From Candidatus Latescibacterota bacterium (lineage in GTDB: Bacteria > Latescibacterota > UBA2968 > UBA8231), in contig OY730476.1 in assembly GCA_963422735.1 (NCBI GenBank), forward strand, positions 1,600,001-1,664,000: a DNA stretch of 64,000 bases, read 5' to 3'. Below, piece by piece: positions 10,671 through 19,404 of this stretch (the stretch's first letter is position 1; each line of letters opens with the position of its first letter). Below the pieces are notes generated by a model. The model was not told the DNA's origin and searched no databases. It saw only the letters and a program-made list of their open reading frames with translations. The position numbers were made by a program, and so were the translations under genes.

Positions 10671-12767
10671 TTGTTTTGCACCCGAACGCTTCTTCCCACA
10701 GGACTTATTGCTCTTTCTGTCTTTGTGCAATGTAGCCGGTCGGCGACCCCGGCGACCCCACCGCCGCCCAAATACACCGGCGATCTGCCGGTGTTGCGAT
10801 CTCACGGCAAGTTGCGCGTCATAGTCCCCCCAGAGCCGATTGCTCACATACCCAAGTCCGCAGAACCGGTGACGATTGACTACGACCTCGCCTACGGCTT
10901 GGCCGAGGTGCTCAAGCTGGAGCTCATGCTGGTAAAGGCTGAAGATTATGCCCAGATGGTACAGAAACTACTAGAAGGCGAGGGCGACATCGTCGCTGCT
11001 AGCCTGACGATTACGCCAGCGCGACAGAAGCAAGCGGCGTTTTCCGTGCCGTATCTCTATGTGGATGAATATCTGATTACCGCGGCCGGCGACAGTCTGC
11101 CGATGGCGATTGAGGACTTGGCCGGCATGAAAATCGGCGTCCGGCACTCCAGCTCTCACTATCAGACCCTGTTGGATATTCAGCAACAGGTACCGTCGTT
11201 GCACATAGATGCCGCGCCGGAAAAGCTCGGGCTCGAACATCTCCTCGACGGCATTGTCCGCGGCGAATACCAAGCGACCGTAGCCGACGAGCATTTGTGG
11301 CGGGTGGTGGAAAGCTATTACGACAGCATGGTCACGCCGCTAATAGTGGCCGAAAACCGCCCGATTGCCCTAATGATGCGGCCCGATGATGTGCAGCTCA
11401 AGACCAAGGTCAATGAATATCTGATCGCCCAGCAGTTTACGCGCCAGTCCCAGCAGGCCTTCACCGACGACCTGCCCGGCTTAAAAGAGCGTCAGCGGCT
11501 GCGCATGATCACGCGCAATAATGCGATGACCTATTTCATCCACCGCGGCCGGCAGGTGGGCTTTGAATACGAGCTTATCAAGGGATTCGCCGACCGGCAC
11601 GACCTGCGGCTCGATATTGTCATTCCGGAAAGCCACGCCGACCTGCTGTCGCATTTGAACGAAGGCAAAGGCGACCTCGTAGCCGTGGCAATGACCATTA
11701 CCGAGGAGCGACGGGCACAGGCGGCATTTACCCTGCCCTATAACGAGGTAGAAGAGCTCGTGGTCGTGCGTGCGGAGGAGGATTCGATTGCCAGCGTCCA
11801 AGACTTGGCCGGACGCACGGTCCACGTGCGCCCAAGCTCTTCTTTTTACGCCACCCTGATGGCCCTCGCCGATTCCATAGAGGGTTTGCAGATCGCGCTA
11901 CTACCCGACTCCCTCGAAACCGAAGACATCCTAGCCGGCGTCGAGGAGGGGCGCTACGACATTACTCTGTGCGACTCCAATCTGCTCGACGTGGAACTTG
12001 CCTACGGACGCCAGCTAAAGGCGGCCTTTAGCATCAAGCCGACGTCTTTGGGATGGGCGGTGCGCGAGGACAATCCGGCCTTATTGGCGGCGCTTAACCA
12101 GTATATAAAAAAAGAAAAAGGTGGCTTGTTTTTTAACATGATGAAGAAGCGATACTTCAAAAACAAGCGCACCATCGCCAAGGCGAAGGACTCGCTGCGG
12201 GTCGATTTGAGCGGTCGCCTGTCGCCCTATGATGAGTTAGTAAAAAAATACGCCCAACAGTACGGTCAGGATTGGCGGTTGATTACCGCGCAGATGTACC
12301 AGGAATCCAAATTCGATCCCGAGGCCACCAGTTGGGTCGGCGCTCGCGGGCTGATGCAGATCATGCCGGGCACCGGGCACGAGTTGGGATTTACCGATCT
12401 GCACGACCCTGAAAAGAATATTCACGCGGGGGTGAAGTACATGTACCAACTGCTCAACCGCTTCGATTCAAAAATCCCCATGGATGAGCGGATGCGCTTT
12501 GCGCTGGCCGCCTACAATGTCGGGTACGGGCACGTGCTTGACGCGCGCCGCCTAGCCCGCGAAAAAGGGTGGAATCCCGACAGGTGGTTTGGCCATGTGG
12601 AACAGGCAATGCGGCTGCTGGCCAAGCCGGCCTACTACAAGCGAGCGCGCTACGGCTTCTGTCGCGGCGGACAGCCCGTGCATTACGTGAGCAACATTCA
12701 GAATAGGTACGACGCCTATGTCGGGATGCTGACTTTGGCGCAGCGGGACAGCCAAACGCGCATCTGA
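10671..12767 (+). CDS. mltF: MltF-like lytic transglycosylase with two tandem SBP_bac_3 domains
   Basis: Two substrate-binding repeats (GDIVAASLTIT, GDLVAVAMTIT) followed by SLT motifs YQESKF, GLMQIMP, ALAAYNVG, RYGFCRG. Confidence 0.85.
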   Translation: MFCTRTLLPTGLIALSVFVQCSRSATPATPPPPKYTGDLPVLRSHGKLRVIVPPEPIAHIPKSAEPVTIDYDLAYGLAEVLKLELMLVKAEDYAQMVQKLLEGEGDIVAASLTITPARQKQAAFSVPYLYVDEYLITAAGDSLPMAIEDLAGMKIGVRHSSSHYQTLLDIQQQVPSLHIDAAPEKLGLEHLLDGIVRGEYQATVADEHLWRVVESYYDSMVTPLIVAENRPIALMMRPDDVQLKTKVNEYLIAQQFTRQSQQAFTDDLPGLKERQRLRMITRNNAMTYFIHRGRQVGFEYELIKGFADRHDLRLDIVIPESHADLLSHLNEGKGDLVAVAMTITEERRAQAAFTLPYNEVEELVVVRAEEDSIASVQDLAGRTVHVRPSSSFYATLMALADSIEGLQIALLPDSLETEDILAGVEEGRYDITLCDSNLLDVELAYGRQLKAAFSIKPTSLGWAVREDNPALLAALNQYIKKEKGGLFFNMMKKRYFKNKRTIAKAKDSLRVDLSGRLSPYDELVKKYAQQYGQDWRLITAQMYQESKFDPEATSWVGARGLMQIMPGTGHELGFTDLHDPEKNIHAGVKYMYQLLNRFDSKIPMDERMRFALAAYNVGYGHVLDARRLAREKGWNPDRWFGHVEQAMRLLAKPAYYKRARYGFCRGGQPVHYVSNIQNRYDAYVGMLTLAQRDSQTRI

Positions 12768-13030
12768 GCTGGTGGGCTGCTACTTGGCCTCGCAGATGGC
12801 AAGAAGCCCGTGGCATTCCGATGCTGATAGCGTGCGCCGTCAGGTGGTTTACCGCATGCGCGACCCCGTATCCCGCACTCGTCGTATTTCCCCTCTCTCA
12901 CCAGCTTAGCAATTATCCGCTGCGGCGGCTCTGATTCCATTTTACATAGCTGAGGCCGTCACCTTTTGCGTCGCGGTCGGCCCGGATTGGGCGCGGACAA
13001 AACAGGCCAGCAGTGCGCTATACTTGGTGC

Positions 13031-13316
13031 GGCAACCCCACCAACCTTTACCCGCGTCCTAACACCCTCGCCGGCAGATGCGTAGCCAGCTCCGGCACGA
13101 ACCACAGCCCCACCAACAGCAGCACCTGAATCGCGATAAAGGGCACGACTCCCCGATAGATATGTTGAACTGCCCTTTGGCCAGCGCCAAGAGCATGGCC
13201 CCCACCGCGCCAACCGAAGCCGCCTCAGTCGGCGTAGCCACCCCGAAGAGGATGGAGCCGAGCCACCCCACAGATGAGGACTAGGGGCGGCACGAGCGCT
13301 GCGCCGAGGCGGCGGA
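13031..13316 (-). repeat. Degenerate duplicate of the dctM 3' end (direct repeat bounding the island), with ~400 bp internal deletion
   Basis: 13031-13161 matches 17993-18123 (3 mismatches by eye); 13164-13316 matches 18526-18677 (4 substitutions, 1 indel). Confidence 0.95.
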
Positions 13317-13353
13317 TGAAGTGAACGGAACCCGGTCCGCACCTAGGAAGGAG

Positions 13354-14874
13354 ATGGGGACAGTGAATAAAAACATCTCGAGATATCTATTACCGGCTGT
13401 GCTGATTTCGGCTATGGCAAGTGCCGACACGCCAGCATCGTACGATCTGATGGCAGGAGCGTGTTTGTGGCCCTTAAGATCAGGGACGATATCTCTGTCT
13501 TAGGAGAGGCTGGCTTCTCGCGTACTTGGAACGACGATGCTGTAGAGGTCTACTTCGCCTCGGACCCTCTGACCTCCGGCGACAAATACGAGTCCAATGA
13601 TGGACAAGTGCGCATTTCATCGCATGATGGGCAGACCGCAAGCCTTGAGGGTGCGGTGGCTATTTTCGGCACACCAACACAATTGCCCTTTCTGTGGGAC
13701 GTGTTGGGAGTCCGGGCGGCCTTCTTGCGAGAAGGCGAGGTGACGAGCTACGAGGTTGAGCTGCCATCCCAAGTGTTAGGCAGGCCATGGCTTCCAAGCG
13801 GCGTAACTATAGGTCTGAATGTCAAGGTCACGGATGACGATGACGGGGGGGGGCTAGACCATGTGCTGAGTTGGATGCCAGACGAGAAGAGTAACAGTTG
13901 GATCGCCACAGACGGCTTCGCAGAAGTGCAATTCTCAGGCAATGTCTCCTCGGTGGACGAGGGTGAGGCACAGATGACGGAAGCTAGAGCGACAGAAGTC
14001 GCTATAGCTGAGAAAGCCATCGGAGCCCTCCGGTCCTATCAGGACGGTCGCCTTTCGCAAGCCTATACGGAGTTCTCAGAGATCCGTGCGGAAGGCACTG
14101 TCGCAGAGCAGGCGCTGAGCATCTTTGTTCTAGCTGAGATCGCAGAAGCGCGGGGCCACAGCGACAAGAAGGCCGAGTTGCTTGAAGATCTGATACAGCT
14201 TCGCCTCGGCCCGGGATGGTCTTCGTGGAGGGCGTCGTATGCCCTGTGGGAGCTAGGTTGGGCATACGTTGACATGGGCGAGCCTAGCAGGGCTAGAAGC
14301 ACCTTCACGGAGGGCCGTGACGTCGTGGCTGGTATTCTTGGAAGCGGAGTATTACTTCCACAGAGCACTCTCCTATTGCTTGCCGGTCGAGGGAGGAAGC
14401 ACCAACGATCAAGATCGCTATTCAAGTGAGGTGGTTCCGGTGCTCGAAGCGAAGGCGCGGAGCCGCAGCCCTCGGGCCTTCGCCGCGGCGAAGGTTCTGG
14501 CGCGCCATTATTTAGATAGCGAGCAATATGAGGATGCAGTGAGAGTTGCTGATATAGGGCTCGGAATTGATCCGCTGTATGATGGAACGCGGCTAGTCAG
14601 AGCGCACGCCTACGAACGCAGCGGAGACTACGAGAGCGCAATGGAGGACTTCCGCTTCGTCCACGAACAGGGAATGGATCCCGTCAAACGAGGATCCGCT
14701 ACCCTTGGAATTGCGAGGTGCCTAGCGGCAGCGGGCGACTGGTCTGGCGTTACGACCCTATTCAATAGCAACACGGGTCAATTCACGACCGCAGATCAGC
14801 AGATAAGTGCGGAAAGTCTTCTTCAGCGAGCCACAGCCGGTGGTAGGAGCGGCGGATGGTGGATCACCGAATGA
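13354..14874 (+). pseudogene. Secreted CBM9-like sugar-binding plus TPR protein, split over three frames
   Basis: Signal peptide ORF (RBS AAGGAG, ATG 13354) shifts into DDAVEVYF...IGLNVKVTDDDDGG (CBM9/DOMON-like), then TPR helices continuing in the 14269-14874 frame. Confidence 0.6.
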
Positions 14875-14923
14875 GGCACACACTGGATACTCACTCAGAC
14901 CATGGAATAGGAGGAAAAGGCAA

Positions 14924-15970
14924 ATGTACTGGTTCAGCTTAGATCGAGGGGCTCATTTAGGCTCGTGCAAGGCCACGCGGATCGGTTCTCTGCTCATAGG
15001 AGCTTGCGTGGCATTTTCGTCACCAACGCAGGTGGAGGCAGTCAGTGCTGAGGAGGCCGTTGCATCCGCGATTGGACAGTGGGATAGAGTGCAAAACGGA
15101 CACGGTCACTCTGTGGCTGAGTACCGTTGGGCAACTGGCAATATAGACACTCTGTCCGTGCTTTGGCAGCGAGAGCAGTGGGTTGCATTTGACAAGGAGC
15201 GTCTGCTCTCACAGACGGAGATGACTTTTTGGGGAGATAATGGAGAGCGAAAGACGTTCCATGTTGAAGAGTTCGATGGCGAAACGTGGACTCGTCTTGT
15301 GGGGAGTGACACTAGTAGGGTAGAGAGTGCATCAAGCGGGAACAGGCCGATGCCACACTCATACGAAGGTCATCCCGTTGGTTGGAGCGGCCTTCTCCCG
15401 GGCGATCCCAAGAGCCTTTTGGAAGAGGCTGCGAAACGCGGCGATTTTGAGGCCCAAGGTGTGGTGACGGAGAAAGGGCTACAGCGCCTTCTCCTCAAAG
15501 GCTCCGTTGTGGTTGATGATGTTGTTCGCAACATCGAATTCTGGCTGGCAGAAGAACGTGGGTATCTTCCGGTGAAAATCAGGATGCCCTTGGGCCCTGA
15601 TTACCCAGGGGAGTGCGTGGTACGGCTTGAATATCGGCAGTACGGCAGTGGAGTGTGGACCCTATCAGCAGGCAGGAGTACAATGACTGACAATGAGACG
15701 TATTTGACGGAACATACGGTCGCGTTCCAGCCGGACTTTAGTGTCAACACAGGCGCACATCCTCGCTTGGAAGAGGGGCTTCAGATCCCTCCAGGTACGC
15801 TCATCATTGATGAAAGCACGGGTAATCGTAGCATCAGGCATTCCGGAGGAGGACAGGGCTTCCTTGAAGACACCGGTCCACAGAACTGGGTGGCAATGGA
15901 GCCTCAGCTTCTCGATGACGAGCAGTTGGAGAAGGTGGTTGGTAGAGGGACAAGAGTGAAATGCAGCTAG
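14924..15970 (+). CDS. Secreted LolA-like-fold protein with C-terminal double-glycine-type leader
   Basis: RBS AGGAGG then ATG 14924; signal-like SLLIGACVAFSSPTQVEA; beta-rich motifs FWLAEERGYLPVK, IPPGTLIIDE; ends LLDDEQLEKVVGRGTRVKCS. Confidence 0.6.
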   Translation: MYWFSLDRGAHLGSCKATRIGSLLIGACVAFSSPTQVEAVSAEEAVASAIGQWDRVQNGHGHSVAEYRWATGNIDTLSVLWQREQWVAFDKERLLSQTEMTFWGDNGERKTFHVEEFDGETWTRLVGSDTSRVESASSGNRPMPHSYEGHPVGWSGLLPGDPKSLLEEAAKRGDFEAQGVVTEKGLQRLLLKGSVVVDDVVRNIEFWLAEERGYLPVKIRMPLGPDYPGECVVRLEYRQYGSGVWTLSAGRSTMTDNETYLTEHTVAFQPDFSVNTGAHPRLEEGLQIPPGTLIIDESTGNRSIRHSGGGQGFLEDTGPQNWVAMEPQLLDDEQLEKVVGRGTRVKCS

Positions 15971-16147
15971 ATATGCAACGAGTGCGAAGTCTCGTGGCCG
16001 TGCGATTGGGGTAGCTTTTGGTGCCGTGCGGGATGCGCCTCGGGGTCAAGCAATTGTAATCTGTCAAACAAGACGGACCTGTGTTGGTGGCAATGTCCGG
16101 GACTATATCCGCAGGTTGTTACGGGTTACGCAGGGTGTGGGAGTTGA
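15896..16147 (+). other. Cys/Trp-rich peptide precursor (leader plus 10-Cys core) interrupted by in-frame TAG at 15968-15970
   Basis: Manual translation: MEPQLLDDEQLEKVVGRG/TRVKCS*ICNECEVSWPCDWGSFWCRAGCASGSSNCNLSNKTDLCWWQCPGLYPQVVTGYAGCGS*. Confidence 0.65.
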
Positions 16148-16262
16148 TCCTGCAGGGCAAGAAATAGCTAGGGGGTGAGTTCTTGTTACAACCTGCGGAT
16201 GGCGGTCCACAGGGCTTCACGGTGAGGGACCACGTGTGGTGTTCCACCGATAGACGTAAACA

Positions 16263-16773
16263 GTGAGACCATCGCGAGAGAAACCAGTTGCATTGGGCCG
16301 TGGCATCCTTACTGTGCTTGTTGCAGTGTTGCTATGGGTCCACCTAAGCCACGCGGAAAACGGTGTGTTGTGTGGTCCGAGGTCCCTCCTTGCGTGGTTG
16401 CATTTATCCGGAAAGCGAGCGTCTCTGGACGATGTCTTGACAGCAGTTCGGTACAAACCGGGAGCTGCCGTCAGTATGTTGAGTCTAAAGTCGGCGGCTG
16501 ATTATGGACTTGCCTTAGAGGGCTTGAGGATCAACCTAGAGGACTACGTGAATGAAGGGCTCCGGGGAATCGTGTTCCTCGACGGTGGCCACTTCGCCAC
16601 TGTAGTGGGGCATACAACCGACGCAGTTGCCTTAGTAGACCCCCGACAGCTTGGTGGTTGAAGTGTCTCAGGACACGCTGAGACGGCGTTGGGGAGGGAT
16701 AGTTCTCGTGCCTAAGAGTAGTGCTGAAGTGCTGACTCCTCCTGCAACACCAACCTTGGCCGATGATTTGTGA
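16263..16773 (+). pseudogene. Stand-alone peptidase C39 with signal peptide; 1-bp frameshift in a C5 run at 16640-16644
   Basis: Catalytic LCGPRSL (Cys), VSMLSL, GHFATV (His), VDP (Asp); removing one C gives DPDSLVVEVSQDTLRRRWGGIVLVP, the typical C39 end. Confidence 0.8.
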
Positions 16774-17872
16774 TTCCCTAGCCACCTCAAGGGCGGGCTC
16801 AATTCTCGTCGGAGTGTGGCTGATAATCGGAGTCTCGGTGCTTTCTAGCTGTGACTTTCTCTTATTTTCTGAATTAGAAGATGGCAAGGACGCGGGGTTA
16901 GAGTTCGCAGGCTGGCTACCAGCTTGGGCAGGAGATGCCGGATACCTAAGTGTGCTTGAAAACCGGGAGATGTTAACTACCGTCTCTCCTGTGTGGTACC
17001 AAGTGAACGAGAGCGGAGAGATAAGGTTCGTTGGTCCAGATAATCATCGGCGGATCGTGGACTCACTGCAGGATATGGACATCGGCATCCTTCCTTCGGT
17101 GCCTCTCTTCGATCATGAGCTTTTCACGACGATTGTAACAGACTCAATGCGCTTCGAGCGGCACGTTGCTGGTCTTGTCGATATCGGCCCTGATCCGGCA
17201 AATGACGGGATTGACCTCAACTATGAGTCCATCAAGCTCACAGATGGATCGGCCTACTATGAGATCCTCAAGCGTGTGGCAGCGTCTCTACAGGCCGAGG
17301 GGAAGACCGTCTCGGTGACTGTATTAGCGGAGTGGTCTGACTCCTCAGATGTATATCCGTCGTTCAAGGAGACGCATGAGGTCATTGACTACGCAAAGAT
17401 CGCGGCGGTAGCAGATGAACTACGCATTATGGCCTATGACTTCACTTCTGCGTATATGCAGTCTCCTGGCCCGATCGGGCCGCTCACTTGGCAACATCAG
17501 GTCCTCAATTATGCGATTGCTAAGGGAGTACCAAGAGGGAAGATTGTTCTAGGAGTCCATCTCTACGGGTACGAGTGGCACGTAGTCGTCCGAGGAGAGT
17601 CAAGGGATGAGAAAGAAGAAAGGCCCTCGTTCACGCCAGACTTTAGAGACAACAGCATTACTGACGTCCGAGTGCGTACATACGATTACCGCCTTGTCAA
17701 GAAAGCACTGTCGATCGCCTCAAGGTCAGCCACTTCCGAGCAAACGGCCCATCAGGGAGAGCAGATTCTCCGCTATACCCGGGTGTACGAAGGAGGACGC
17801 CCAACAGAGGTCGGAGCTATCGCTGATGGCTTGGAATCTCGTCACTTCATAGTTGAACGATCCGACAAATGA
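16763..17872 (+). CDS. Glycoside hydrolase family 18 lipoprotein (spore-hydrolase/chitinase-like), C-terminus possibly degenerate
   Basis: Lipobox LSSC, VSPVWY, DGIDLNYE, IMAYDF, KIVLGVHLYGYEW. Confidence 0.8.
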   Translation: MICDSLATSRAGSILVGVWLIIGVSVLSSCDFLLFSELEDGKDAGLEFAGWLPAWAGDAGYLSVLENREMLTTVSPVWYQVNESGEIRFVGPDNHRRIVDSLQDMDIGILPSVPLFDHELFTTIVTDSMRFERHVAGLVDIGPDPANDGIDLNYESIKLTDGSAYYEILKRVAASLQAEGKTVSVTVLAEWSDSSDVYPSFKETHEVIDYAKIAAVADELRIMAYDFTSAYMQSPGPIGPLTWQHQVLNYAIAKGVPRGKIVLGVHLYGYEWHVVVRGESRDEKEERPSFTPDFRDNSITDVRVRTYDYRLVKKALSIASRSATSEQTAHQGEQILRYTRVYEGGRPTEVGAIADGLESRHFIVERSDK

Positions 17873-18009
17873 CGGAGACGTGGTCCAGTCAGTTGCCACG
17901 CCATCAAGGACATGGGCCTCGGAGATTGGCAGTAGGGGGATGGATGTGTTCCAGTCTGCCGGGTAAGCAGGGACAGACGCTATGATCAGGAAGGCAACCC
18001 CACCAACCC

Positions 18010-19404
18010 TTACCCGCGTCCTAACACCCTCGCCGGCAGATACGTAGCCAGCTCCGGCACGAACCACAGCCCCACCAACAGCAGCACCTGAATCGCGATA
18101 AAGGGCACGACTCCCCGGTAGATCTGCGGCGTGCTGATCTGAGGGGGAGCGACGCCGCGCAAGTAAAAGAGCGAAAAGCCAAACGGGGGCGTGAGAAAAG
18201 AGGTCTGCAAATTAAGGGCGATCATCACGCCCAACCACACGGGATCCAAGCCCATCGCCAAGAGGATCGGGCCGACGATGGGCACGACGACGAAGATGAT
18301 CTCGAAGAAGTCGAGAAAGAAGCCGAGCAAAAACATCACGACCATCACCAGCGCGAAAGAGCCGACCACGCCGCCGGTCACCTCATGGGTCAGAAAGTGC
18401 TCGACCGCTTCGTCGCCTCCGTAGCCGCGAAAGACCAACGAAAACGCGCTCGCGCCGATGAGGATGATAAAGACCATGGCGTTAATCTCGGTGGTGGTGC
18501 GCATGACTTGTTTGAGCGCGGCGCGGTTGAACTGCCCTTTGGCCAGCGCCAAGAGCATGGCCCCCACCGCGCCAACTGAAGCCGCCTCAGTCGGCGTAGC
18601 CACTCCGAAGAGGATGGAGCCGAGCACCCCACAGATGAGGACTAACGGCGGCACGAGCGCTGCGCCGAGGCGGCGGAGGAAAGCCGCGCTGAGAATTTGC
18701 ACGCGCTCCTCGGCCGGCACGGCCGGCACGGCGGCTGGTTTGAACAGGCCGAGACCGACTATATAGAGGATATAGAGACTCATCAGCACGAGGCCGGGCA
18801 AGAGCGCGCCCATAAAGAGGTCCCCGACCGAGACCGAGACCGGGGCGAAGTTGCCCATTTTGATCTGGGCCTGCTGATACGCTGAGGAGACCGTATCGCC
18901 GAGGATGACTAAGACGATGCTGGGCGGGATGATCTGGCCGAGCGTCCCCGAAGCGCAGATGATGCCGGTGGAAGCCGCTGGGGAGTACGCACGTTTGAGC
19001 ATGGCCGGCAGCGAAATAAGCCCCATGGTGACGACCGTCGCGCCGACGATGCCGGTGGAAGCCGCCAACAGGCCCCCGACCAGACAAACCGAAATCCCTA
19101 GCCCCCCGCACAAGCTGCCGCAGAGTTGGGCCATGGTTTCGAGTAGGTCCTCGGCGATTTTCGAGCGCTCTAGCACGACCCCCATAAAGACGAACAGCGG
19201 CACGGCCATCAGGGTCTCGTTGGCCATGATGCCGTAGATGCGGGCTGGCAAAGCCGAGAGAAAAGCCGCGTCAAAGTCGCCGGTGAGGACGCCGAGGCCG
19301 GCAAAGCCGAGGGCTGTACCCGCAAGGCAAAAGGCCACCGGGAAGCCGGATAGCAGCACCGCGAAGGTGCAGAGGAACATGGCCAGCGGCGCGAGTTCGC
19401 TCAT
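18010..19404 (-). CDS. dctM: TRAP transporter large permease
   Basis: AVPLFVFMG, GTLGQIIPPS, ATPTEAAS, LTPPFG; start MSELAP overlaps the dctQ stop. Confidence 0.95.
   Translation of the reverse strand: MSELAPLAMFLCTFAVLLSGFPVAFCLAGTALGFAGLGVLTGDFDAAFLSALPARIYGIMANETLMAVPLFVFMGVVLERSKIAEDLLETMAQLCGSLCGGLGISVCLVGGLLAASTGIVGATVVTMGLISLPAMLKRAYSPAASTGIICASGTLGQIIPPSIVLVILGDTVSSAYQQAQIKMGNFAPVSVSVGDLFMGALLPGLVLMSLYILYIVGLGLFKPAAVPAVPAEERVQILSAAFLRRLGAALVPPLVLICGVLGSILFGVATPTEAASVGAVGAMLLALAKGQFNRAALKQVMRTTTEINAMVFIILIGASAFSLVFRGYGGDEAVEHFLTHEVTGGVVGSFALVMVVMFLLGFFLDFFEIIFVVVPIVGPILLAMGLDPVWLGVMIALNLQTSFLTPPFGFSLFYLRGVAPPQISTPQIYRGVVPFIAIQVLLLVGLWFVPELATYLPARVLGRG

Follow-up and report, generated by a model that had tools for sequence, protein, structure and literature searches.

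A putative Sec-exported pro-peptide with a double-glycine-type leader beside a stand-alone C39 peptidase in a decaying genomic island of Latescibacterota

Textbook accounts place double-glycine (GG) leaders and C39 peptidases in the cytoplasm, as parts of peptide export coupled to ATP-binding cassette (ABC) transporters. Whether the same pair can also operate behind Sec is the question raised by a locus of a Candidatus Latescibacterota genome (G000). The window, that is, the whole stretch of DNA analyzed, comprises 64,000 nt (G000:C1:1600001-1664000) of one 4.95-Mb contig. Within a genome-specific island of four genes, it contains a gene for a LolA-like protein whose frame runs through a TAG into a putative leader and a Cys-rich core (gene 2), followed by a gene for a stand-alone C39 peptidase (gene 3). 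A reading of these letters without database searches (the sequence-only reading) had proposed that the precursor rides on an exported carrier and is released outside the cytoplasm, an interpretation that our analysis partly supports. In the explanation that we favor, with a probability of roughly 0.6, the system makes a Sec-exported pro-peptide whose maturation by a dedicated C39 peptidase takes place outside the cytoplasm, and the fusion to a LolA-like domain is specific to the lineage of the island. Both textbook parts appear to have been moved to the outer face of the membrane, behind Sec. For G000 itself, the locus is a dead import to which we attach no functional weight.

Gene 2 starts at ATG 14924, 9 nt downstream of the end of a GGAGG motif (see Table 1 for all features). 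The open reading frame (ORF) from this start has 348 codons and terminates in ...MEPQLLDDEQLEKVVGRGTRVKCS before the TAG. When the TAG is read as X, the frame remains open for 58 further codons until TGA 16145-16147, and the read-through translation is ICNECEVSWPCDWGSFWCRAGCASGSSNCNLSNKTDLCWWQCPGLYPQVVTGYAGCGS. The 65 residues that follow a G-R-G site contain 10 Cys, 1 before the TAG and 9 after it, and the tail downstream of the TAG contains 5 Trp. The ORF list misses this tail because no in-frame ATG, GTG, or TTG follows the TAG. Since 1293 of 4500 windows of 58 codons (29%) are open in the three plus-strand frames of the island, the open frame is not rare by itself, and the reality of the tail therefore rests on homology to relatives.

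A word-based search returned 2 proteins among 4191 candidates, namely, the window's own protein and a fragment 84% identical to it (P0003), and an exhaustive phmmer search against 1.84 billion representatives returned 8 proteins at an E value of ≤0.001. One of the latter was P0003 again, and five (P0004 to P0007 and P0009; four full-length and one a fragment) are carrier homologues with 31 to 35% identity and matches limited to residues 24-301. P0008 (175 aa) matches only residues 331-406, which are leader and core and span the TAG (phmmer E, 1.7e-8; 39% identity and E of 1e-16 in the pairwise comparison). P0010, a 1072-aa repeat protein, was set aside as a relative, its match being short and repeated. 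At 90% identity, the cluster of the window protein has 5 members. P0014 is 407 aa long, exactly the read-through size, and has W at residue 349, the position of the TAG. P0016 (290 aa), the N-terminal part of whose protein was split off as P0017, extends from the second half of the LolA-like domain through leader and core, again with W in place of the TAG. Trp is thus found in 2/2 near relatives that cover the position, and in 2/3 near relatives that reach the junction, the LolA-like domain continues into the leader without a stop. Identity between the window and P0014 is 94.6% in the LolA-like domain, 88.9% in the leader, and 73.4% in the core. With 17/64 core residues changed versus 14/257 in the LolA-like domain (Fisher p, 5e-6), the core diverges ∼5 times faster, and decay following the nonsense mutation does not by itself explain this, because CWWQCP of the window resembles CWFQCP of the distant P0008. 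All 10 Cys are conserved in P0014 and P0016, and 8 are conserved in P0008. Together, the P0008 match across the TAG and the Cys framework kept despite fast divergence indicate that the core is coding, and, judged by its relatives, the read-through ORF is one ancestral gene that is broken here. No match was found when 185,579 species genomes were scanned with P0014 and with two tail-alignment patterns, the 83-aa tail alone gave no candidate in the word-based search, and the ESM Atlas yielded no usable match to the tail. For the LolA-like part, the ESM Atlas gave unnamed clusters only, most commonly from Planctomycetota, which we regard as leads and not as evidence.

The fold of P0014 was modelled with an 11-row alignment; predicted local distance difference test (pLDDT) values were mostly 84 to 95 across residues 40-288 and <30 in the tail. 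Foldseek against the PDB gave 64 matches at an E value of ≤0.001, the best being 3bk5 (E, 1.2e-8), followed by others such as LolA3 (9tp6), DUF1329 (4z48), LprG, LolA/LolB, and RseB. Nearly all of the best 30 were LolA, LolB, LprG, LppX, RseB, or “lipoprotein-sorting” proteins, with a TM score on the target of ∼0.5. In this model, the N-terminal domain of gene 2 has the LolA-superfamily fold, an unclosed beta-barrel with a helical plug. The Pfam LolA families (PF17131 and related) do not match P0001 or P0014, and a homologue from genome G078 reaches 21.9 bits (cut-off, 30). In front of the domain, the model places a helix at residues 14-31, within the putative signal peptide; the carrier homologues P0004 and P0006 have lipobox-like ends (LIGC/VTGC).

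Behind the LolA-like domain and a linker lies the candidate leader, which begins at residue 325 and not, as in classical double-glycine systems, at the N terminus of a short precursor. Taking G-R as positions −2/−1, hydrophobic residues stand at −4, −7, and −12, a spacing that fits the consensus M(R/K)ELX3E(I/L)X2(I/V)XG(G/A) given in the consulted part of PMC3140520. We modelled residues 318-407 of P0014 together with residues 14-154 of P0020, an intact relative of the gene 3 product. The predicted complex scored 0.71 (0.71, 0.72, and 0.71 in the individual runs), versus 0.32 for the best of 3 controls. The mark applied to such scores is reached by 51/78 solved complexes and by 2/108 mismatched pairs; the runs had at least 55% of contacts in common and a partner pLDDT of at least 43. 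In the modelled interface, leader residues 326-343 face C20, G21, and G93-H94-F95 of P0020, among them the catalytic Cys and His. Complexes of C39 peptidases with leaders have been solved already, so the score may show likeness to them rather than binding of this copy.

Gene 3 starts at GTG 16263, and its product begins MRPSREKPVALGRGILTVLVAVLLWVHLSHA, in which an n-h-c signal-like region can be recognized by inspection. The catalytic Cys37 belongs to LCGPRSL. In frame 0, the ORF extends to 16661, and the remainder of the domain (VVEVSQDTLRRRWGG...) is in the +1 frame. The break is a 2-nt loss within 16639-16652; sequencing runs X2 and X3 have 2 more letters at 16639-16641, and P0020 reads VDPPDSLAVEV where the window reads VDPRQLGG and a stop. 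The 132-aa fragment has 18.4 bits with PF03412, under the gathering cut-off of 22 bits, whereas P0020 (154 aa, 86% identical) has 35.4 bits (E, 1.1e-8; profile positions 12-131 of 133) and, on this profile match, is a true member of the C39 family. The Cys (LCGP), His (GGHFATVVG in the window), and Asp (VDP) can be placed in register with the Cys, His, and Asp of the double-glycine protease 6mpz_A, although the phmmer E value itself is weak (0.6). In NCBIfam, the C39 protein matches best to an NHLP exporter model, TIGR03796 (E, 4.1e-8), at a score far under the cut-off. P0014 and P0020 each come from a 6841-bp contig, and on account of this equal length they are taken to be probable neighbors. 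With ∼170 codons and no ABC domain, gene 3 differs from a peptidase-containing ABC transporter (PCAT). The island contains no ABC or PCAT exporter gene, and no other PF03412 match was found in G000 at an E value of ≤0.01, in a search whose positive controls responded in 7/14 genomes. Several claims of the sequence-only reading have thus stood: the TAG-interrupted frame with its tail of 10 Cys and 5 Trp, whose printed letters agree with ours and whose TAG is covered by relatives; the failure of the ORF track to show that tail; the LolA-like nature of the carrier; a neighboring C39 peptidase with an apparent signal or anchor of its own and without ABC domains; its expected pairing with the leader, as far as the complex model goes; and the lack of a PCAT or modifying enzyme in the island.

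Is the pairing of such a precursor with such a peptidase peculiar to this island? With P0020 as the query, C39 matches occurred in 23/168 genomes of the phylum, including G000, and in 8/13 genomes of one other family (f10). Six loci, from 6 of these 8 genomes, were mapped by tblastn and Pfam. Five have the gene order signal peptide-CBM9-TPR, signal-anchored C39-DUF1573, BlaI-like repressor (PF03965), BlaR1-like M56 protease (PF05569), small ORF, and LolA-like gene. In genome G074, the C39-DUF1573 protein has 63.2 bits with PF03412 and 90.1 bits with PF07610. CBM9-TPR adjoins C39-DUF1573 in 5/6 loci; in L030, one of the five with the order given, it was not detected in the 1.2 kb of contig upstream. 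BlaI and BlaR1 are both present in 5/6 loci, and in 5/6 the LolA-like gene lies immediately 3′ of the precursor, which is a separate gene there. The sixth locus, L031 (646-6984, from G083), has two CBM9-TPR genes, each followed by an ORF with a signal peptide, GG, and a Cys-rich core, flanking one C39-DUF1573 gene; within its 7 kb, there is no BlaI, BlaR1, or LolA-like gene. The small ORFs, 7 in total and at least 1 in each of the 6 loci, encode 97 to 140 aa with a hydrophobic N terminus and a Cys-rich core. Their leaders end in ...LTISEMETLVGG, NELLQVKGG, MEDMSMTIGG, ETEMQALIGG, LDDMSQISGG, HEDLLDMKGG, and ETSLLSGG. GG is invariant in all seven, and E(M/L)xxxxGG stands directly before the first Cys. 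In a MAFFT alignment, G-R of the island is in register with this GG, and five Cys columns are invariant, a sixth is nearly so, and a terminal GC is shared. Five more ORFs that passed the Cys filter were not counted, since no signal sequence or GG site was evident by eye; their N-terminal hydropathy partly overlaps that of the counted precursors.

Other parts of the island are likewise related to these loci. A profile of the carrier matches the LolA-like protein of G074 (hhalign probability, 96%; E, 3.5e-9), and gene 1, which encodes a CBM9-TPR protein upstream of gene 2, is 29% identical to the CBM9-TPR protein beside the C39 gene of G074 (E, 5e-11). Gene 1 is part of the system, a point that the sequence-only reading had missed. 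The BlaR1-like protein of G074 (L027 4718-6772) carries a C-terminal, outer LolA-like domain that is 38% identical to the LolA-like protein encoded two genes downstream (E, 2e-69). The island and f10 precursors share architecture and context, a claim that stops short of homology of their cores. A second type of locus occurs in the genus and family of the window, in G030 (L023 204-3348) and G146 (L019 650-2735). This native four-gene set comprises a TPR protein, a membrane-anchored 181-aa C39 peptidase (97.9 bits in G030) that is not found in G000, and an ORF of 84 to 90 aa with a signal peptide, ...IKGG, and a hydrophobic core; the G030 locus additionally has an Rce1-like/CPBP protein.

These findings suggest the following scheme for the intact system. 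The gene 2 product would be exported by Sec and would consist of a signal peptide, a domain of LolA fold, a short linker, a leader of 18 residues, and a 65-residue core with 10 Cys. The C39 peptidase carries an apparent N-terminal signal or anchor of its own and would thus encounter its substrate outside the cytoplasm. There it would bind the leader and cleave at G-R-G, the likeliest cut being the one after G-R, since G-R aligns with the GG of the relatives. The freed, presumably disulfide-rich peptide might then act with, or be carried by, the LolA-like domain. The island would be a compact, fused form of the wider cluster, in which precursor and LolA-like protein are encoded by adjacent separate genes. 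What the system makes would probably be a secreted signal or an antimicrobial peptide that varies between strains; a core that is strain variable with conserved Cys, next to BlaI/BlaR1 or CPBP genes, fits a signal or bacteriocin.

How well does this scheme withstand other explanations? An artifact might be suspected, be it a frame left open by chance, an assembly error, or a TAG that is read as sense, as an open frame of this length is common and repeats bound the island. However, 7 sequencing runs contain at least half of the sampled words of the stretch. Four runs (X1, X2, X3, and X5) were compared with it, giving 265 letter differences; X1 has 0 differences over 15714-16919 and hence shares both the TAG and the frame break of the C39 gene, and X5, which may be the source of the stretch, is identical to it and contains all of it. 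The relatives read Trp where the window reads TAG, and frame-breaking deletions in two other island genes fit decay, not recoding. On these grounds, we rejected a chimeric assembly as well as recoding or read-through of the TAG, and we give hardly any credence to an artifact in general. The precursor might also be a classical separate small gene, read from ATG 15896 with a cytoplasmic leader, its in-frame position behind the LolA-like domain being accidental. Counting back from the end of GRG, a Met does lie at exactly 18 residues, the leader of P0008 likewise starts with Met, and the distant carriers end upstream of the leader. Yet the sole possible ribosome site for that ATG is GGTGG at 2 nt upstream, and the window, P0014, and P0016 all lack a stop between the domains. 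The island has no ABC or PCAT exporter gene, and no second PF03412 match was found in the genome at an E value of ≤0.01 (positive controls in 7/14 genomes). The C39 peptidase has an apparent signal or anchor, and the f10 precursors have signal peptides of their own. We therefore consider a separate cytoplasmic precursor very unlikely.

Several observations weigh against cleavage of an exported precursor, or against its generality. The site in gene 2 reads G-R-G and not GG, GA, or GS, and a second glycine-rich stretch in the linker (SGGGQG, residues 307-312) lay outside the modelled part. Neither in Pfam nor in NCBIfam does a leader or bacteriocin family match the leader or core of P0001, P0014, or P0008; the sole curated-model match on P0014 (TIGR03093; E, 0.012; residues 160-174) is outside them. 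In PCAT C39 domains, an oxyanion Gln stands ∼6 residues before the catalytic Cys, and none was found by inspection in HAENGVLC (window) or HAESGKLC (P0020); some f10 C39 homologues have Asn at −6. The start assigned to P0020 (MLVTVFLW...) gives a hydrophobic stretch too short for a signal peptide, and the true start may differ. P0015, from the same 90% cluster as the window protein, ends at residue 293, the fusion of LolA-like domain and tail is confined to that one cluster, and none of the five distant carriers (P0004 to P0007 and P0009) has a leader or tail. The single distant carrier locus with downstream sequence, L008 (a 1578-bp metagenome contig, the sole return for a P0006 query), has a methyltransferase-like ORF downstream of the carrier and neither a C39 gene nor a Cys-rich ORF there. 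Comparison of the island and f10 precursor profiles gave an hhalign probability of 14% and an E value of 0.002, too weak to establish homology of the cores, and the core folded alone (4-row alignment) reached a pLDDT of 44.6, too poor for a fold search. The Cys-rich C terminus might be a stable, uncleaved domain of an exported LolA-like protein, for instance, a small binding or anchoring module, with the “leader” a mere linker and the C39 peptidase acting on another target, perhaps a signalling component or the CBM9-TPR protein. Within the cluster, no pair is tighter than CBM9-TPR and C39, which also occur together in the island, the GH18-like (gene 4) and CBM9 neighbors hint at glycan biology, and the periplasmic C39 peptidase FapD is without a known substrate in what we consulted of PMC5557850. 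Against this stand the leader being the very part modelled on the catalytic Cys and His, the seven f10 ORFs with a textbook motif right before the first Cys, the occurrence of leader and core behind two unrelated exported N-terminal parts (P0008 and the LolA fusion), and the absence from the core of any Pfam domain, carbohydrate binding or other, at an E value of ≤1. We judge an uncleaved domain unlikely and retain the exported pro-peptide matured by C39 as our preferred reading. The proposals of the sequence-only reading on leader, fusion, and gene context stand in part. The leader of GG type sits in the modelled C39 active site, but its site is not GG. Carrier and precursor are fused in P0014 and P0016 but not in the distant carriers or the five f10 LolA-like proteins, which lack leader and tail. 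A LolA-like gene, a precursor with a signal peptide, and a C39 gene stand together in 5/6 f10 loci but not in L008.

Compared with known systems, the locus combines familiar parts in a different order. PCAT systems (e.g., 6mpz) share with it a papain-like C39 peptidase with Cys, His, and Asp, an amphipathic leader ending in Gly-x, which is predicted to occupy the active site here as well, and a variable, often Cys-rich core after the leader. They differ in that the present C39 peptidase is stand-alone, with a putative N-terminal signal or anchor and with neither ABC domains nor an exporter gene, and in that the leader is internal, following a signal peptide (f10, P0008) or the LolA-like domain (island). 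In NHLP/Nif11-type systems, the leaders are cytoplasmic and export is by PCATs. Such precursors with long leader domains are named in the part of PMC3140520 consulted; they resemble gene 2 in having a large folded N-terminal part before a GG-type site and a short core, but the N-terminal part of gene 2 is a LolA-fold domain that would be exported by Sec. With LolA, LolB, LprG, and RseB, it shares the predicted fold and a signal or lipoprotein-type N terminus; the island domain differs in being linked to a peptide precursor, with no indication of lipoprotein sorting, and the LolA-like domain of G074 in being the outer domain of a BlaR1-like sensor. A comparable enzyme is FapD of the Pseudomonas Fap amyloid system, which, according to the consulted sections of PMC5557850, has a Sec signal and catalytic Cys38, is experimentally periplasmic and active, and belongs to a class of C39 peptidases yet to be characterized. 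Its signal is followed almost immediately by the catalytic Cys38, as the signal-like region of gene 3 is by Cys37, whereas gene 3 adjoins a candidate substrate with a recognizable leader; no fap-type amyloid or FapF-like gene was among the neighbors seen (CBM9-TPR, LolA-like, GH18-like). Bufferins, described in the accessed part of PMC11626156 as ribosomally synthesized and posttranslationally modified peptide (RiPP) precursors with Sec signal peptides that depend on MNIO enzymes, likewise leave the cytoplasm via Sec and not by a dedicated ABC exporter; unlike for bufferins, no modifying enzyme or MNIO gene was seen at this locus. In a literature search covering open full texts, we did not find the arrangement described, nor a text combining “LolA-like” or “DUF1573” with “C39”; the polymorphic-toxin survey PMC3482391 mentions C39, in the portion consulted, only as a toxin domain.

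If the preferred reading holds, these loci give enzymes such as FapD, the only periplasmic C39 peptidase studied as far as PMC5557850 was consulted, an obvious candidate substrate, and their specificity becomes directly testable because the loci pair a periplasmic-type C39 peptidase with that candidate. Mining tools that seek short N-terminal GG leaders beside PCATs would be expected to miss the class, including its fast-evolving, presumably disulfide-rich products, and the LolA-like partner and the BlaR1 protein with a LolA-like sensor domain suggest a new class of ligand for the LolA fold. More tentatively, the loci may represent an undescribed envelope-side peptide system of diderms, with Sec export of a Cys-rich GG-leader precursor, processing outside by a signal-anchored C39 peptidase (often C39-DUF1573) together with CBM9-TPR, binding by a LolA fold, and BlaR1-type sensing that leads to relief of BlaI repression; this is possible, but we would not count on it. 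If true, it would be a self-regulating signal or bacteriocin circuit, and the island gene would be a Rosetta-stone fusion of a peptide and a LolA-like protein that work together.

Table 1. Coordinates of the features discussed (window positions unless a locus is named)
Feature	Position	Strand	Remarks
Gene 2, pro-protein of 407 codons broken by TAG	14924..16147	+	Signal peptide, LolA-like domain, linker, leader, Cys-rich core
Putative Sec-type signal peptide, residues 1-38	14924..15037	+	K/R n-region, IGSLLIGACVAF, ...VEA; by inspection; type I versus lipoprotein type undecided
Predicted LolA-superfamily fold domain, residues 39-295	15038..15808	+	Model pLDDT and Foldseek
Candidate double-glycine-type leader MEPQLLDDEQLEKVVGRG, residues 325-342	15896..15949	+	Hydrophobic spacing, MAFFT, modelled C39 interface
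65-aa core with 10 Cys, residues 343-407	15950..16144	+	Cys kept in relatives
In-frame TAG, residue 349	15968..15970	+	Trp in relatives P0014 and P0016
Gene 3, small C39 peptidase with putative signal or anchor at N terminus	16263..16773	+	Catalytic Cys37 at 16371-16373; frame broken
Genome-specific stretch	12797..18004	.	Between mltF-like gene (10671-12767) and dctM stop (18010, minus strand)
Duplicated dctM 3′ fragment	13016..13320	-	93-96% identical to 17978-18126 and 18526-18681; ∼400 nt short of full copy; repeats D1-D3
Island proper, one four-gene operon, ∼4.7 kb	13318..17997	+	GC content and limits of X2/X3 match
Gene 1, signal peptide, CBM9-like, and TPR, broken twice	13357..14874	+	PF06452 E 7.4e-12, TPR matches; ORFs in three frames
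Gene 4, GH18-like, lipoprotein-like N terminus (...VLSSC), intact	16763..17872	+	PF00704 E 6.7e-16; 11-nt overlap with gene 3 end
Cys-filter ORFs not counted as precursors	L027 7760-7963; L028 3562-3711; L029 9149-9298; L032 1623-1802; L032 6353-6670		No evident signal sequence or GG site by eye

GC content is 0.53 to 0.60 across 13000-18000 and 0.62 to 0.70 outside. In 30 genomes of the same genus, the mltF-like and dctM flanks are ≤100 nt apart in 14 (abutting in G022), 10 have 1.5 to 9.2 kb of other DNA in the gap, and 6 lack a usable flank pair; the carrier was not found in 60 relatives. The matches of X2 (95 to 99% alike) and X3 (a marine metagenome, 90 to 95% alike) are confined to the island proper, and because their contigs leave the match at 13318 and 17997, the island stands in another context there. 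The window has at least four lesions. In addition to the TAG of gene 2 and the 2-nt loss of gene 3, gene 1 is interrupted at ∼13441, where X3 has 136 additional letters and where the signal-peptide ORF (from 13357) is severed from the CBM9 ORF, and at 14336, where X2 has an extra GA, 2 nt that would rejoin two out-of-frame ORFs. X2 has lesions of its own, lacking 19 nt at 15894 and skipping 59 nt over 16457-16517. We regard the island as horizontally acquired and decaying, and the operon is almost certainly dead in this genome.

Some minor observations concern the surroundings of these genes. The gap between the mltF-like gene and dctM (window 12767-18010) is a variable spot in the genus, filled with other DNA in G010, G003, G018, G006, G021, G029, G030, G008, G026, and G027, and a 42-nt element (window 12978-13019) recurs beside dctM in several of the gap-filled genomes. 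The dctM 3′ fragment at the island's left edge is possibly a scar left when recombination introduced the island. Gene 4, which has no counterpart among the six f10 loci, reads DGIDLNYE, with Asn for the third Asp of the GH18 catalytic motif, DxxDxDxE, and may be a weak or noncatalytic member. In one X2 contig, 262 other letters connect 15993, early in the core, with 17807 (matches 15917-15993 and 17807-17997). This joined form has the leader and the first part of the core in common with the window, continues differently, lacks a C39 or GH18-like gene, and may be another precursor cassette. Upstream of the f10 cluster in G074, an ORF at L027 1422-1646 (= L013 2-226) has an end that resembles a C-terminal sorting domain of the type IX secretion system (T9SS). 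Finally, the depth of X1 across 13300-18000 is very uneven (3 to >500), and a loose end in this run resembles a cDNA-synthesis adaptor; if X1 is derived from RNA, the dead operon is still transcribed.

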